This document shows positions 17,086 to 60,817 of a DNA stretch of 64,000 nt, in pieces. The DNA lies in the NCBI GenBank assembly GCA_964016885.1, contig OZ024740.1, forward strand, positions 238,762,001 through 238,826,000. Reading direction: 5' to 3'. The notes under the pieces are model-generated. The model searched no databases and had not been told where the DNA came from. It saw only the letters and a program-made list of their open reading frames with translations. The number at the start of each line of letters is the position of its first letter. The stretch's first letter is position 1. The position numbers and the translations under genes were made by a program. The DNA is from Eledone cirrhosa (taxonomy: Eukaryota).

Positions 17086-17433
17086 GCCCTAGGCCCAAAG
17101 CCCAATTACTCTATCCCTTCACCCCTCTCCTCTCTTCTGCAACACCAGAGATCTTGCCATCTTCTCCCCTTCCCAATCTTTTTCTTCTTTCTCACCCTCC
17201 TTTTTTTTCTTTTTTTCTTTTTTTTCTACATTTCCCTATTCTTTCTTTCATTTTGTTTCCCCTTCTTTTTTATTATTTCTATATTGAAAATAAACATGCA
17301 TTGTGTATAAATATTTCGTATCTCCAAAGAAATACGGTTTTAGGAAGCCGTAGCTATGCAAACACCGGGGTGGGGGGTGGGGGTGGGGAGGGCTAACGCC
17401 CTCTGGTGATGTCCAGCAGAAGCAAGGGGGACA

Positions 17434-17477
17434 ACCGTCTATGCATTTCAGGCTTAACTGGCCTTCGTCAGGACGGT
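17434..17477 (-). ncRNA. Minimal type I hammerhead ribozyme
   Basis: Minus strand: ACCGTC-CTGACGA-AGGC cagttaa GCCT-GAAA-TGCA-TA-GACGGT, with perfect stems I and II. Confidence 0.85.
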
Positions 17478-17735
17478 CCCTCCCACCACTTGCAACTGTT
17501 GGACAGGTGAGAATATATACTTTTCTCGTCTGTGTAAATGAGGTGATTAATCTCATTTGCATATGAAGCTGCATAAGTTGGCTCAACTTATAATAAAAAA
17601 GAAATAGGATTTCGCTAAGTTGAGCCAACTTATACAGCTTCATATGCAAATGAGATTAATCACCTCATTTACACAGACGAGAAAATATATATTCTCGCCT
17701 GTCTTCTAGTCCGGCAGTTGCAAGCGGTGGGAGGG

Positions 17736-17779
17736 ACCGTCCTGACGAAAGCCAGTTAAGCCTGAAATGCATAGACGGT
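17736..17779 (+). ncRNA. Minimal type I hammerhead ribozyme (one stem II mismatch)
   Basis: ACCGTC-CTGACGA-AAGC cagttaa GCCT-GAAA-TGCA-TA-GACGGT. Confidence 0.8.
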
Positions 17780-18809
17780 TGTCCCCCTTGCTTCTGCTGG
17801 ACATCACCAGAGGGTGTTAGCCCCCCGGTGTTTGCATAGCTACGGCTTCCTAAAACCGTATTTCTTTGGAGATACGAAATATTTATACATATTGTATAAA
17901 GCTATGCTTGAAGCGAAATCCTAAACATGCATTATTATTAAAAATTGCTAACTATATATTCAATGCATAAAAGAGATTTTTATTTCTGTACAGACATTAA
18001 TGTTTGTTTATATAAAATGAAAGAAAAGTTTCTTCTGTTGGTTTTAAAGTGTAATTAAATTTAATTTACCCTTTAAGAATATCTGAAATTCAATGAAATA
18101 AAGAAATATTTTAGTAAAATAACCAAGAAAACCAATATGCAAAATTTTGTTATTGAAGATTCGAGATGACAGATAATTTTGTTGTGAAAGATTTTGTAAA
18201 GTTTACCAAAACTGTGATTGCTAACTGCTGCACAGCTACCTGTTTTATCATTTGTGATACATAGTTACTTTTTCTTATCCTTTTAGCATTTACATTACTC
18301 TATATTTACTATTGTATTTTCATGGTAAACATTTTACCTCGCTTAATTATCTCATATAATATCGAATCTTTGAGATTTCGATATTATTTATTTTGTGAAT
18401 AATACCTTAACATCAGTATGAGTGGCCAGTTACAGCCAATTTGAACAGAAAGAGGTGAGAGAATTCTGGCCGGATATGGATGGTTTAAATGGTAATTGGT
18501 TAAATATAAAGTTTAGAAATATAATTAAAAAAATAACCACTTATAATAACTAGCTTTGTGTATTTATTTGCTGAGATAGTAAGGAAATGGTGTGGAAGTT
18601 GTTTGGCTGTCTAAGAGGATGAGTGAGTGAACACAGAAGGGAAATGAAAGTGTGAGGTATTTTTCAGTCATGCTTGATCAGAGTAGCAAACTGGGTAAGT
18701 GAGAATGATAGGATTAGAAAGGGAGTGGTAGGAGTAAGAGTTGTAACAAAGGCAGAAATGATAGCTTGAATTACACACACACACACACACACACACACAC
18801 ATATATATG

Positions 18810-19804
18810 TATGTAAAAGGTAAACAGAAATAACAACGCAATCAGTACAGTACATGGGAGGAATATATTAGTTTAATGCTTGAAATAGCAGAAAGAAGGT
18901 CTTAACGTTTCAAATGCTAGTCCTTCATCAGAAGAAAGAATGAGGAATTAGAAAGATTGAAGGGACGGGCAGGGTGGAATCGGAAAAAATGTTTTTAGAG
19001 AAAAATAACAAGTCCATTCATGTTGACATCTCTTGGAAAACCGTTGATGCTGGCGTTTTGTGTATGATATATTTTTTTTAGAAAAGTGGATGATGGAACG
19101 CATCTACCTGCAATGGAAAAAAACTGTTTTGTATATAGAGCTGTACGTGTGTGTGTGTGTGTTATTATATGTCCGTACGAAGCTAAGAGGATATGTGTGT
19201 GTGTATATGTAAGTAAAAAAGCATGTGTGTGCTTGTAAGTACAAAGCTGTGAGCAAAAGTATGTTAATAAAAGGGAGTGTGTGTGTATACAGAGCTGTAA
19301 AGGGAAAAGTAACGGTGTGTGAGTGTATTTTGTTGCTGTAAGAGTATATGTTTCTGACAATAAGAGAGCCATAAGGCACGTGTGTGTAACGGACGGGGTA
19401 AACGTGACAGGGGCAAAGGGTAGAGAAGCAAGTATGAACGTATATGTGTAATATTAAAGAAATTGGGAAGGGAAATTGAGTCCATCAGGGAAACAGGACC
19501 CAATACAGGTAAAATTCTGTTATAACAAATACCATTATATATTTCAGTATAACAAAATTTTTTCAATCCCCAGCCACATGCTCGATATGTTAGGTCGATC
19601 TTGTTATAAAGAATTTTTCATTACAATGAATTTTAGTTTATACCCCGTGAATTTCATTATAATGAAATTTCACTGTATATATACATATATATACATATAT
19701 ATATATACATATATATATATATATAAAATGTAAACAGAAATAACAACACAATCAGTACAGTATATGGAAGGTTATATTAGGTTAACGCTTGATATAGCAG
19801 GAAT
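18810..19804 (-). mobile_element. Direct-repeat element of the 49.4-49.8 kb hammerhead family, with a nested MITE
   Basis: 18810-19030 matches 49400-49615; partial direct repeat at 19725-19804; decayed hammerhead at 18900-18935; flanked by CA/TA tracts. Confidence 0.7.
19504..19676. mobile_element. Tc1/mariner-pogo-type MITE
   Basis: Imperfect TIRs TACAGGTAAAATTCTGTTATAAC / TTATAATGAAATTTCACTGTA with TA ends. Confidence 0.55.
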
Positions 19805-20166
19805 TATATATATATATATATGTATATATATATATATATATTATGCAGAAAATTCAGTAAGTCTGAAGAAAACTGGTGAGAATACCAAGGTCAGCACTCA
19901 GTGCAGAGTGTATATAATAAGGACAAAGTGGAGGTGTTACATAGGAGATTTATTGCTCAATCCTGGTTACAAATATTTCTCAAGCAGCTGACTCGTGATC
20001 TGGGTTGGCACCCCAGACCAGGCTCCAAATCTGCCTGATCCTCAAACCTAACATAAATCATCACCATTTCATCATCATTTCATTTTCCTGCTTGCAAGGG
20101 TGGGACGGGAACTGATTCTGGCTTGATTTCTACAGCTGGATGCCCTTCCTAACACCAACCTCATTT

Positions 20167-20551
20167 ACAGAACACACTCACTGTTTGGTTGGTTTTCGCT
20201 TTTCGCTTCTGTGTCTTTTATATTGGTAATCTAATTTATTCGGTCCTCAATGTTGCCATTGGCTGACCAACGGTAAAAAATAATACATTGTATGTCTACG
20301 CCATCTTCAAAAAGATGGCGTAGACATACAATGTAACGGGAGGAAACAATAGCACCACTGACGATGTTGCAGATGTGCAATGAAAGAACTTTGATAAACT
20401 ATATATATGTGTTTGTGTCTATATTGTATCTGTATTATTTTTGACCGTTGGTCAGTCAATGACAACATTGAGGACCGAATAAATTAGATTACCGATATAA
20501 AAGACACAGAAGCAAAAAGCGAAAACCAACCAAACAGTGAGTGAGTTCTGT
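20167..20551. mobile_element. Nested palindromic element with a degenerate hammerhead (20353-20396, +)
   Basis: Arms 20167-20286 / 20431-20551; inner 23-bp hairpin at 20285-20334; CTGACGA-t GTTGCA gatg TGCAAT-GAAA. Confidence 0.75.
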
Positions 20552-58746: not shown

Positions 58747-59212
58747 TAATTTAAATACTTATATAAATAAAAATAAATAAATAAATGAAAATAAACATAA
58801 TATTATAATTCACTACTGCTACATTTGGCTAGAATGATTAATAAAATCACTTATTCCTAAATGCAACAAATATTGTATTTTAAAAAATGACTATTTGAGA
58901 AATAAGAAAAAAAGATGATTGAAAAATGGAATATATATTTTCATATATGCAAACTCCATTCATCAAATAGAAAAAAAATGGTTGAAAAGGTAAAAACATT
59001 CCTTCATACAAACACTGTAAGCATTTGCTCTTCATTTGTAAGTTTATCATCGTCAAATACTTGAATATCAATGAAGATATATGTGTGAGAGACAAGTTGT
59101 ATTATATGACTTATGCCAACTGATGATGATGATGATGATGATGATGACAATGATCGTGACAATTATGGTGATGACAATGATGGTGACAATGACAAATATG
59201 ATAATGGTGATG

Positions 59213-59810
59213 ATAATTGTTTCTACTTTTGGCACAAGGCCAGCAATTAACCAGTACATTACTGGTACTTTATTTTATCAACCCTGTAAGGATGAAAGGC
59301 AAAGTTAACCTCGGCGGGATTTGAACTCAGTCCATAAAGGGATGTAACTGTGCCGCGAAGCATGGCGACCGACCCTCTACCAATACTGCCAATCCACCAC
59401 CCTTGATGATAATAATTGTTTCTACTTTTGGCACAAGGCCAGCAATTACCCAGTGCATTACTGGTACTTTATTTTATCGACCCCGAAGGATGAAAGGCAA
59501 AGTTAACCTCGGCGGGATTTGAACTCAGATCATACAGGGAGGTAACTCTATGCTTCAAAGCATGGCGTCCGACTCTTGATGATAATAATAATGGTTTCTT
59601 ATATAGGCACAAGGCCAGCAATTTTGGAGGAGGGGGAAGTCGATTAAATCTACCCCAGTGTGTGACTGGTACTTTATTTTATCGACCCCGTAAGGATGAA
59701 AGGCAAAGTTAACCTCGGCGGGATTTGAACTCAGTCCATAAAGGGACGTAACTGTGCCGCGAAGCATGGCATCCGACCCTCTACTGATGCTGCCAACCCA
59801 CCACCCTTGA
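59213..59810 (-). mobile_element. Three tandem SINE family A copies
   Basis: Consecutive copies separated by TTGATGATAATAAT. Confidence 0.88.
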
Positions 59811-59976
59811 TGATAATAATAATGATAGCAACAATGATGCCGATGAGGGTAATGATGGTGATTAGAGTAATTATTAATATAATCAAAATTTAAAAGCTAT
59901 TTTATTGTTTGCTATTTTTATCATAGCTACATTGAATCTGAATGTTTATATTTATTTTCTCTTTTCCGTACATTAG

Positions 59977-60105
59977 GAACATGATGGACATCTGCCATTA
60001 CGAATAAAATCTGTCCCAGAAGGAACTATAATTCCTTACAAAAATGTATTGTTTACTGTTGAAAACACTGATCCAAAATGCTTCTGGCTGACAAATTATT
60101 TTGAG
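59977..60105 (+). CDS. NAMPT: NAMPT coding exon 3 ([16 protein letters not shown]...[16 protein letters not shown])
   Basis: TAG acceptor and GTAATC donor; 129 nt; DGHLP, VPEG and [11 protein letters not shown] motifs. Confidence 0.97.
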
Positions 60106-60432
60106 GTAATCAGATTTTTTGCTTTTGTTTTCAAAGTTGAGTTCTTGTACAGACCAGCACTGGACTTACCTATCAGCTAAATAATATATAACACACCTTT
60201 AAGGGTTTCATTTAAAAAAATATATTTTTATTTTATCATTAGTTTTTATCCTTTAACATAAAATCAACAAAAATATATATATAAATCAACAAATATATAT
60301 ATATATATGAATGTATGTATAGTATATTCGATAATATACTGTGTGTTTAATTAAAAACATTTTGAAGACCATTCGCTATGAATTTTAAAGTAGTGACTAT
60401 GTCACTTACTTATTCTTGGCAAAAACAAAGGG

Positions 60433-60483
60433 GAGTAATCGACAGTCCTGTTTCTCGCTCATTAGTGGTTATCAAGACTACTC
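60433..60483 (-). ncRNA. Hammerhead motif with U3-A8 core variant, inside a repeat element at 60305-60772
   Basis: Minus strand: GAGTAGTC-TTGATAA-ccactaatgagcga-GAAA-CAG ga CTG-TC-GATTACTC; stem II imperfect. Confidence 0.65.
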
Positions 60484-60817
60484 ACCCCTTCGCTTCAGCC
60501 AAGAATTATGGAAGCTGGATTAAACAGAGCGGTTGCCAGTCCAGCAAAAATTAGGTATTAGTATTGGTGCTCTGAAATTGTGATGTATATATGAATGTAT
60601 GTATAGTATATTTGATAATATACTGTGTTTGATTAAAAACATTTTGAAGACCATTCGTTATGAGTTTTAAGGTAGTGATTATGTCACTTACTTATTTTCA
60701 GCAGTCACTACTTTAAAATTCACAGCAAATGGTCTTCAAAATGTTTTTAATTAAACATACAGTATATTATCAACCACTTTACAGGGTGTACTTTATCTTT
60801 TATTTTGTTTTTTATAG

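Follow-up and report, generated by a model that had tools for sequence, protein, structure and literature searches.

Eight insertions with type I hammerhead motifs in NAMPT introns of Eledone cirrhosa, probably written by Penelope-like enzymes

What are the hammerhead-like motifs that recur in the introns of an octopus NAMPT gene, and how did they come to be there? The window, that is, the whole 64,000-nt stretch of Eledone cirrhosa DNA that was analysed, contains NAMPT on the forward strand (12343..62514), recognised by a PF18127 match (E 4.8e-33, Pfam on window ORFs) and by one exon that is 94% identical to a NAMPT-like protein of Octopus sinensis. The first five exons were located (exon 1 to ~12402, then ~45046-45275, 59980-60105, 60830-60976, and 62386-62514), and all 12 hammerhead motifs are intronic, within introns 1-3. 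The 12 positions listed in the initial annotation proved exact as the low ends of the motif spans, taken from stem I to stem I. Since the motifs at 49491/49697 and at 49143/50046 stem from one inverted duplication, the set of 12 amounts to eight insertions. We consider it likely that the reverse transcriptase-endonuclease of Penelope-like elements (PLEs) placed these insertions of high-copy repeats, which carry type I hammerhead motifs, in the AT-rich DNA of the introns, and that two of them, F4 and F6c, are retrozyme-like, being short tandem units with no ORF. Elements of this kind are already known, as PLE hammerheads and non-LTR retrozymes, from many other animals; our literature search found no cephalopod report of either, and the locus extends both to cephalopods at high density (eight insertions in 43 kb).

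Five hammerhead descriptors, from strict to loose, were applied, the strict one demanding the CTGANGA core, four of four pairs in stem I, three or more of four in stem II, and GAAA..UH. It returned seven matches in the window (F1a, F1b, F3a-c, F4, and F5b), a rate unlike that of shuffled sequence: 100 local dinucleotide shuffles gave 0.11 +/- 0.31 and never more than 1. If one mismatch is allowed, F2 passes as well. A self-complementary helix III is seen in 7/7 of these strict matches vs 7/77 matches in 60 Mb of Markov sequence; by family, self-complementarity is full in F1, F3, F4, and F5, 8/10 in F6, and 4/6 in F2. Chance matches in repeat-rich, AT-rich DNA could be invoked because the loosest descriptor finds 8.4 matches per shuffle, F5a and F6c are caught by loose descriptors alone (two of them for F6c), and F6a and F6b pass none of the five. 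Given the strict-match excess, the palindromic helix III, the covariation between F1 and F4, and the repair of decayed positions by the family majority, the probability of this explanation for the whole set is practically nil, and for F1, F3, and F4 the same observations refute a chance origin. Helix covariation was obtained both for F1/F4 and for the F3-type class (0.629 vs 0.175 shuffled; 0/500 shuffles), not for F2, F5, or F6. A covariance-model scan of the window, which the initial annotation had proposed, gave no curated Rfam hammerhead among 86 Rfam matches at E up to 1. The motif RNAs are predicted to fold as type I self-cutting hammerheads; among Xenopus retrozyme dimers, just 1/9 tested cut in vitro.

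Two of the families turned out to be related. F1 (17303..17921) consists of two 5'-truncated copies, head to head, with arms 96% identical and a 32-nt tail at the right end only (17890-17921). It is bounded by a 12-bp target duplication (17291-17302 and 17922-17933), the only one found when F1, F2, F4, and F5 were searched, and its depth is ~1,000-3,700x flank in run X1. F1a (17433..17478, minus strand) is an intact canonical type I hammerhead with stem I 7/7, stem II 4/4, and helix III AUGCAU, predicted to cut after A 17440, and F1b (17735..17780, plus strand) has a single stem II mismatch. F4 (37150..37837, minus strand) combines a partial tandem with an inverted copy: the ORF-less unit of 427-431 bp (length from one copy; longest Met-ORF 52 codons) is delimited by direct repeats at 37150-37266 and 37581-37693; a 5'-truncated copy in inverted orientation (37694-37837) comes before it, and its 3' end lies in a TA-rich tract. 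Its canonical type I hammerhead (37362..37404, minus strand) has stem I 6/6, helix III ACUAGU, and a U-U at the helix II base, as in axolotl HHR_Amex2. Alignment of F1 with F4 gives identity in 102/183 columns, and in the helices both sides are changed in 7/20 pairs, with one pair broken. Judged by this alignment, F1 and F4 are homologous, and their geometry is canonical animal type I rather than minimal, at odds with the earlier view that all hammerheads here are minimal. Because of this homology, the statement that stems differ completely between six families overstates their independence, the families falling into five lineages, and F1 is taken as non-autonomous like F4.

An octamer (ATGCAAAT) and a TATA-like block, common to F1 and F4, lie 5' of F1b (17644..17692, plus strand), with a mirror copy in F1 at 17513-17562 on the minus strand and the F4 octamer at 37479-37486. 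Together they form a putative internal promoter. The promoter of newt satellite 2 also contains an octamer. According to PMC2220036, newt satellite 2, with an internal promoter of snRNA type, and schistosome Sm-alpha are short hammerhead repeats with their own promoter, a likeness that is putative for F1/F4, where, unlike in those repeats, promoter activity is inferred from conservation only. The F1/F4 pair offers a natural covariation set with a candidate internal promoter, and could serve as short substrates on which to test PLE priming and the cleavage of dimers.

The CTGANGA core, initially assigned to all motifs, holds for the seven strict matches; the F6 motifs (49143, 50046, and 60433) read TTGATAA, a U3-A8 core, with stem I 7-8/8 and helix III present, and with helix II pairing at just 1-2/4, broken in both independent copies. 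Descriptor support for F6 is weak (2 matches vs 0.35 expected; reached by 2/100 shuffles). F6c (60300..60773, minus strand) is a partial tandem of an ORF-less 282-284-bp unit (length from one copy; longest Met-ORF 58 codons), preceded by an inverted 5'-truncated copy (60703-60773) and ending 3' in (TA)n. Its motif (60433..60483, minus strand) has stem I 8/8, located inside a long hairpin (z -4.8), a 4-bp helix III, a GUC triplet, and helix II 2/4. F6a (49143..49193, plus strand; helix II 1/4) belongs to an element terminating in a 36-nt tail at 49351, and F6b (50046..50096, minus strand) is its identical duplicate. The duplication responsible is a 1.5-kb inverted one centred on (TA)n (48846..50375; arms 98% identical, 690 matches and 14 mismatches), which doubles one F6 and one F3 insertion, flanking DNA included. 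The family has two 3' ends, 31-36 nt apart.

F3b (49491..49526, minus strand) and its duplicate F3c (49697..49732, plus strand) are intact PLE-type minimal hammerheads, with an extra A after A9, G10.1-C11.1, and an ACGU helix III. The F3a element (18800..19480, minus strand; 3' end in (TA)n/(CA)n) carries near its 3' end a minimal hammerhead (18900..18935, minus strand) with a decayed stem II (3/4); at 18913, A>G, found in 98% of X1 and X5, restores a G-C pair. A further F3 3'-end fragment (19720..19803, minus strand) is cut off just below the hammerhead and ends in (TA)n. F3 ends lie at microsatellites in 4/4 cases, and the placement in TA/CA tracts claimed for most motifs applies here and not to F1, which lies outside such tracts. 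Pairing, said to be kept, has decayed in F2 and in one F5 copy, the one at 42215. The F2 insertion (20160..20658, right boundary approximate) is composed of head-to-head copies, the left arm without the hammerhead stretch and the right arm extending to (TA)n; its hammerhead (20354..20395, plus strand; listed at 20353) has an extra U after A9, a 6-bp helix II, a stem I mismatch (3/4), and a non-palindromic helix III. At 20381, T>C accounts for 99% of the depth in X1 and 96% of the reads in X7 and brings back G10.1-C11.1; among the 40 of 342 differences listed, the family majority mends neither stem I nor helix III. F5 (42160..42645, boundary approximate) again consists of head-to-head copies, the right arm longer and both outer ends at (TA)n. 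Its two hammerhead-like motifs, F5a (42215..42288, minus strand) and F5b (42376..42449, plus strand), have a 47-nt helix II region, with a G-G mismatch at the helix II base of F5a; F5b has helix III ACAUGUGU and a GUC triplet, and its hammerhead fold lies ~20 kcal/mol above the predicted minimum, counting basal helix II pairs only. Over F1, F2, and F3, the summed depth is 1,000-34,000x flank in run X1, a figure for depth and not for copy number.

F2, F3, and F5 may be non-autonomous units or just the ends of full PLEs left by 5' truncation. One could go further and take all eight insertions as ordinary 5'-truncated ends (pseudo-LTRs) of autonomous PLEs, with no separate non-autonomous family. 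F3 depth drops from 337,000 to 1,300 moving from the 3' end, a 5'-truncation gradient of at least 650 bp, and the F3 motif class follows GIY-YIG ORFs or PLE genes in other animals; an ATG in F2 overlaps A9 and the first part of stem II, a position near the start of the anole PLE ORF; and most solo motifs were assigned to truncated PLEs by Cervera 2014 (PMC4209133). However, F4 reads on from one 3' end into another unit after 427-431 bp, with no Met-ORF longer than 52 codons, and F6c does so after 282-284 bp, with none longer than 58, an argument that fails only if each is a one-off internal deletion, and we therefore find the extension to all eight unlikely. F4 and F6c are short ORF-less partial tandems, non-autonomous and retrozyme-like: both are head-to-tail units within 150-450 bp with a type I hammerhead motif. 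For these two, the initial reading as non-autonomous ribozyme retroelements stands.

The insertions bear marks of PLEs, namely head-to-head inverted copies, one-sided 32-36-nt tails, the 12-bp target duplication, (TA)n or AT-rich ends, and 5' truncation, and the partial tandem with an inverted 5' copy at F4 and F6c is the layout described in PMC8557442. Like EN+ PLE insertions of Neptune, Poseidon, and Naiad (PMC8557442; PMC11167929), they combine truncation, partial tandem, and inverted 5' copy with a one-sided 30-40-bp tail and (TA)n or AT-rich targets; unlike those PLEs, they contain no RT or GIY-YIG sequence. As had been noted, no Penelope RT is linked to them: Pfam on 327 window ORFs gave no PLE-type RT or GIY-YIG domain, tblastn of 240 PLE-related proteins against the window reached at best E 0.041, far from the motifs, and a 95-sequence PLE HMM at best 0.39. 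Elsewhere, PLE coding sequence is followed downstream by the F3-type core, in the same orientation, in 12/80 metagenome loci, and the unselected stem I pairing is present in 28/59 distinct flanks vs 4.3 shuffled. Because the window is without a PLE coding remnant and the analysis turned up no octopus partner element, the link to a PLE enzyme rests on insertion anatomy and motif class; these support the view that the inserts derive from Penelope-type retroelements with hammerheads or represent the ends of such elements. In Octopus vulgaris, 31 PLE families were recently active (PMC13282606).

Spread without PLEs, as LINE-copied circular-RNA retrozymes or DNA-level palindromic elements, would fit the missing PLE gene, the unit sizes inside the 150-450-bp retrozyme range, and the setting of F5, which sits between two inverted RTE-like LINE pieces and is flanked by an RTE-like RT (42804-43913, E 1.5e-25, Pfam on window ORFs). 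However, tails of 30-36 nt on one side only and inverted copies of the 5' part point to PLEs, a common poly(A) or LINE-like 3' end is missing, and, two-copy palindromes aside, the elements have no terminal inverted repeats of their own; we judge such a route very unlikely.

The set is less unusual than first proposed, as the same features are already present in Cervera 2014 (PMC4209133), which describes minimal motifs, an additional base behind A9, a U3-A8 core, solo motifs left by truncated PLEs, and pairs on opposite strands at a spacing of 100-700 bp. The counterparts here are the extra base between A9 and 10.1 and G10.1-C11.1 in F2 and F3, their palindromic or absent helix III, the F6 core, and the mostly solo motifs and opposite-strand pairs 100-700 bp apart; the copies differ in having no attached PLE ORF, in the union of U3-A8 core and 4-bp helix III in F6, and in the helix II region of F5. 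With metazoan non-LTR retrozymes, as PMC7229834 and bioRxiv 10.64898/2026.07.22.740005 describe them, they share ORF-less 150-450-bp units of GC <50%, the canonical type I hammerhead (F1, F4), a target duplication >4 bp, and a proposed PLE dependence. In the latter, Li, Clavereau and Pollet 2026 count a retrozyme copy as active when it has two or more units with a hammerhead in a row; nowhere in the window do two hammerheads of one family stand in tandem on the same strand, and the window copies also differ from what these sources describe in PLE-style inverted 5' copies and tails and in the cephalopod host. ORF-less units with PLE-specific tails and inverted copies support, at the level of the insertions, the recently proposed origin of animal retrozymes as non-autonomous derivatives of PLEs.

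We envisage transcription of a tandem unit, which in F1/F4 would probably use the unit's own octamer and TATA-like promoter ~90 to 50 nt before the core, and that two same-family hammerheads would pair via the palindromic helix III and then cut. With a PLE protein acting in trans, both strands of AT-rich or (TA)n DNA would be nicked, cDNA would begin at either of two sites separated by 30-36 nt, and two 5'-truncated cDNAs joined mid-way would leave a head-to-head palindrome with a tail on one end only. The anole PLE protein does cut and extend both strands, starting at two sites that flank the tail (PMC11167929). A bolder picture, which we hold to be possible and rather doubtful, is that octopus genomes contain several large families of hammerhead retroelements, undescribed and without proteins of their own, that hijack Penelope enzymes. 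In this picture the F1/F4 lineage would have a conserved octamer and TATA promoter of its own in front of a covarying ribozyme hairpin and yield abundant small circular RNAs, two-ended priming would leave 300-bp hairpins in introns as a dsRNA source for the heavy A-to-I editing of cephalopods, and F6 would represent a retrozyme that combines the U3-A8 core with a monomer-competent helix III.

Might the motifs instead have been domesticated to cut or regulate NAMPT pre-mRNA? Amniotes have conserved intronic type I hammerheads, as PMC6155905 reports, and 5/12 motifs are on the NAMPT strand. Yet the motifs belong to high-copy repeats, no two sense motifs have the same helix III sequence, and 4/5 of the sense motifs are predicted to be paired with an antisense arm (44/45, 72/75, 34/35, and 45/45 nt), the sole one outside a fold-back duplex being the decayed F2; a role in NAMPT is scarcely credible, and we see no sign of importance for the gene itself. 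Because their partners are on opposite strands and most sense motifs are predicted to be buried in this way, the hammerhead copies are likely inert passengers. Dimerisation in cis is impossible between opposite-strand copies, and F1b, for one, is predicted to be buried on the NAMPT strand by folding back on the complement of F1a.

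The initial annotation had placed minimal hammerhead ribozyme motifs at 12 coordinates in at least six repeat families (F1 to F6, with letters for separate copies), and these proved to be the exact low ends of 12 motif spans, namely F1a/b at 17434(-) and 17736(+), F2 at 20353(+), F3a/b/c at 18900(-), 49491(-) and 49697(+), F4 at 37362(-), F5a/b at 42215(-) and 42376(+), and F6a/b/c at 49143(+), 50046(-) and 60433(-). Both strands were scanned, with 100 local dinucleotide shuffles as the chance baseline, and a strict descriptor matched seven motifs (F1a, F1b, F3a, F3b, F3c, F4 and F5b) compared with 0.11 ± 0.31 (maximum 1) in shuffled sequence, so that the motif rate is well above chance. 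Helix III, whose self-complementarity was no condition of this descriptor, was self-complementary in all seven, compared with 7 of 77 strict matches in order-2 Markov sequence totalling 60 Mb. Tolerating one stem I mismatch yielded nine matches (0.77 shuffled) and gained F2 together with one site outside the finding, while F5a was recovered only by the loosest descriptor (28 matches versus 8.4 shuffled). The CTGANGA core had also been ascribed to F6, where the sequence is actually TTGATAA, a U3-A8 core, and only one or two of four bases in helix II are paired. F6a and F6b passed none of the descriptors; F6c, which lies inside a strong hairpin (z -4.8), passes the loosest one as well as a U3-A8 test that leaves helix II aside (two matches versus 0.35, equalled in 2 of 100 shuffles). 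An Rfam scan of the window returned 86 matches, none of them to a hammerhead or other ribozyme family. Overall, the elements are genuine and well formed, and they belong to a type already described. Other CTGANGA strings at 1241, 4872, 28591, 40332 and 41265 were discarded because their fold was not convincing; the CTGACGA at 40332 lies within nested inverted repeats (39548-40613, 94-98%) flanking a GC-richer core, and no hammerhead was found there.

The count of 12 motifs stands, whereas the six families with their separate copies come down to eight insertions and five lineages, F1 and F4 being counted as homologous. Their upstream 110 nt align with a score of 45 versus 17 ± 3, a value reached by none of 1000 shuffles, whereas the remaining 14 pairs of families show no such alignment over this region. 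Identical columns amount to 102 of 183, and among 20 helix pairs seven are changed on both sides and one is broken; in addition, one F1 helix mismatch is paired in F4. These comparisons mark F1 and F4 as distant homologues. In both families ATGCAAAT is retained some 90 nt before the core and AAAGTATATA some 50 nt before it; these motifs were chosen after inspection of the two families. Upstream of the F2 core, at 20304-20319, lies AAGATGGC, which we take to be a YY1-like motif and which is present twice owing to the inversion. The arms of the palindrome at 48846-50375 agree in 690 positions and differ in 14, flank included, and thus F3b/c and F6a/b represent one insertion each, copied once. 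This recent 1.5-kb inverted duplication has a (TA)n centre and microsatellites on both outer ends, and it could be a fold-back duplication or an assembly product.

The F1 insertion (17303-17921) consists of two head-to-head copies with 12-bp direct repeats outside and a 32-nt extension at one end only. In its unpaired centre (17591-17616), 12 nt correspond to the right insertion junction and 14 nt to the left host flank, both inverted, an arrangement that resembles patches left by templated repair, or else a native junction. An interpretation of the centre as a native head-to-tail junction, giving a unit of about 320-335 bp, was dropped: as 14 bases match the host flank, a repair patchwork fits equally well, and a unit length for F1 is not claimed. 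F2 and F5 are likewise head-to-head copies with one arm longer. F4 (427-431-bp unit, longest Met-ORF 52 codons) and F6c (282-284-bp unit, longest Met-ORF 58 codons) each form a partial tandem with an inverted, cut-down copy ahead and a TA-rich end. Two F6 3' ends lie 31-36 nt apart, and F3 3' ends adjoin (TA)n or (CA)n in four of four cases. A search of F1, F2, F4 and F5 for target duplications found a convincing case only at F1. This anatomy is the layout described for Penelope-like elements (PLEs) by Craig et al. 2021 (PMC8557442), comprising 5' truncation, partial tandems, inverted 5' copies, a one-sided tail of 30-40 bp and a microsatellite bias. Frangieh et al. 2024 (PMC11167929) demonstrate cutting and extension of both DNA strands by a PLE protein that favours AT-rich DNA and begins cDNA synthesis at two positions on either side of the tail; the hammerhead of this PLE is protein-dependent and dispensable for insertion in vitro.

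That no Penelope RT is linked to the motifs held up, as the window carries no PLE coding remnant detectable by Pfam on its 327 ORFs (at least 50 aa), by tblastn with 240 PLE-related proteins collected by using non-octopus metagenome loci as search seeds, or by a 95-sequence HMM. The latter two were added because Pfam alone is weak for PLE RTs, having left a 775-aa PLE ORF unmatched. An F3-shaped pattern search yielded at least 120 metagenome loci, and blastn of the window against those fetched gave zero matches at E 1e-5. Stem I did not form part of the pattern; among the matches listed, 28 of 59 distinct flanks allow it to pair, versus 4.3 shuffled, and in viral contigs, searched with a looser pattern solely as a control, a chance-like 7 of 86 do so versus 5.0. 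Covariation reached 0.629 versus 0.175 in 55 hand-thinned distinct motifs out of 81 F3-shaped ones among the matches listed. Again among the matches listed, 12 of 80 loci with fetched flanks have same-strand PLE coding sequence no more than 1.5 kb upstream, the figure being 10 of 54 for loci with 500 nt or more of upstream sequence, and locus L039 has the order GIY-YIG ORF, motif, RT-type ORF. The covariance model R1 matched strongly to F3 only, as expected from training loci picked by an F3-shaped pattern. F3-type motifs behind PLE genes, together with stem I pairing elsewhere, place F3 in the PLE pseudo-LTR motif class; neither the window coding searches nor the metagenome loci identified an octopus PLE partner. 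Among the matches listed, the 80 loci examined also include head-to-head core pairs, none tail-to-tail, on four distinct metagenome contigs (L028, L058/L059, L060 and L065).

Depth data came from four of nine listed sequencing runs mapped on 17280-20560, a region spanning F1, F3a and F2 only; the runs listed for 17200-20620 include none of RNA. In run X1, summed depth relative to the flank, a ratio that is no copy number, was about 1,000-3,700x for F1, 12,000-15,000x for F3 and 8,000-34,000x for F2. F3 was deep in organisms A and B, and F1 and F2 chiefly in A. Away from the hammerhead end, F3 depth falls stepwise (337,000; 273,000; 58,000; 28,000; 9,800; 1,300), which is the profile of retroelements truncated at their 5' end. 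The 40 differences listed, of 342 in all, include T>C at 20381, which restores G10.1-C11.1 in F2 (99% in X1, 96% in X7, 100% in X6 and 5% in X5), and A>G at 18913, which restores a G-C pair in F3a (98% in X1 and X5); none of these 40 repairs F2 stem I or helix III.

Most likely, F1 to F6 RNAs would serve as substrates of PLE proteins acting in trans. Hammerheads of one family would pair via helix III and cut as dimers, the predicted helix III duplexes being -4.7 kcal/mol for F1, -4.8 for F4, -1.7 for F3 and none for F2. The palindromes themselves give no dimer partner, because their two motifs lie on opposite strands, and on the NAMPT strand four of five motifs are predicted to be paired with the antisense arm, the fifth being decayed.

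Genomes with thousands of minimal motifs, the additional base, U3-A8 cores and motif pairs on opposite strands are all described by Cervera and de la Pena 2014 (PMC4209133). Non-LTR retrozymes, ORF-less hammerhead-bearing retroelements, measure 150-450 bp and include a mussel among their hosts (Cervera and de la Pena 2020, PMC7229834), vertebrate retrozymes have been tied to PLE pseudo-LTRs (Li et al. 2026, bioRxiv), and hammerhead repeats of newt and schistosome possess internal promoters (PMC2220036). For O. vulgaris, 31 recently active PLE families are described in a paper whose main text, in the part available, never mentions ribozymes (PMC13282606). Literature searches showed no cephalopod report of such elements among the papers listed. 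The element families are probably unreported in octopus; supplements or repeat libraries may contain them. The main additions are units that lack an ORF and carry the insertion marks of PLEs, and an F1/F4 pair that covaries and has a candidate promoter.

All 12 motifs lie in introns 1-3 of NAMPT, a forward-strand gene with exons at approximately 12343-12402, 45046-45275, 59980-60105, 60830-60976 and 62386-62514, whose second exon shows 94% identity to a NAMPT-like protein of Octopus sinensis and at most 82% to other molluscs, which makes the host an octopod. The window is animal DNA in which TA, CA and ATC repeats are abundant, and intron 1 holds minisatellite arrays of 46 bp (12733-14427) and 37 bp (28058-28498). 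F1 lies directly behind a decayed frame at 16500-17100 that, like another at 22930-23230, presumably resembles the restriction-like endonuclease found at the C terminus in site-specific LINEs; Pfam gave no match for either. A presumably MITE-like element with TACAG...CTGTA ends (19505-19681) is inserted upstream of F3a. The F5 palindrome sits between an RTE-like LINE (RVT_1 E 1.5e-25, PHD-like finger) and an older inverted copy, 72% identical, both within 41493-44477. A 119-aa frame at 38384-38740 has a weak GDSL lipase-like match (E 0.0035), a domain known from some retroelement ORFs. Besides, a young tRNA-like SINE occurs at 7155-7465, 36741-37084 and 62712-63058 in copies 96-98% identical, and another, abundant SINE-like family has more than 10 copies in the window.
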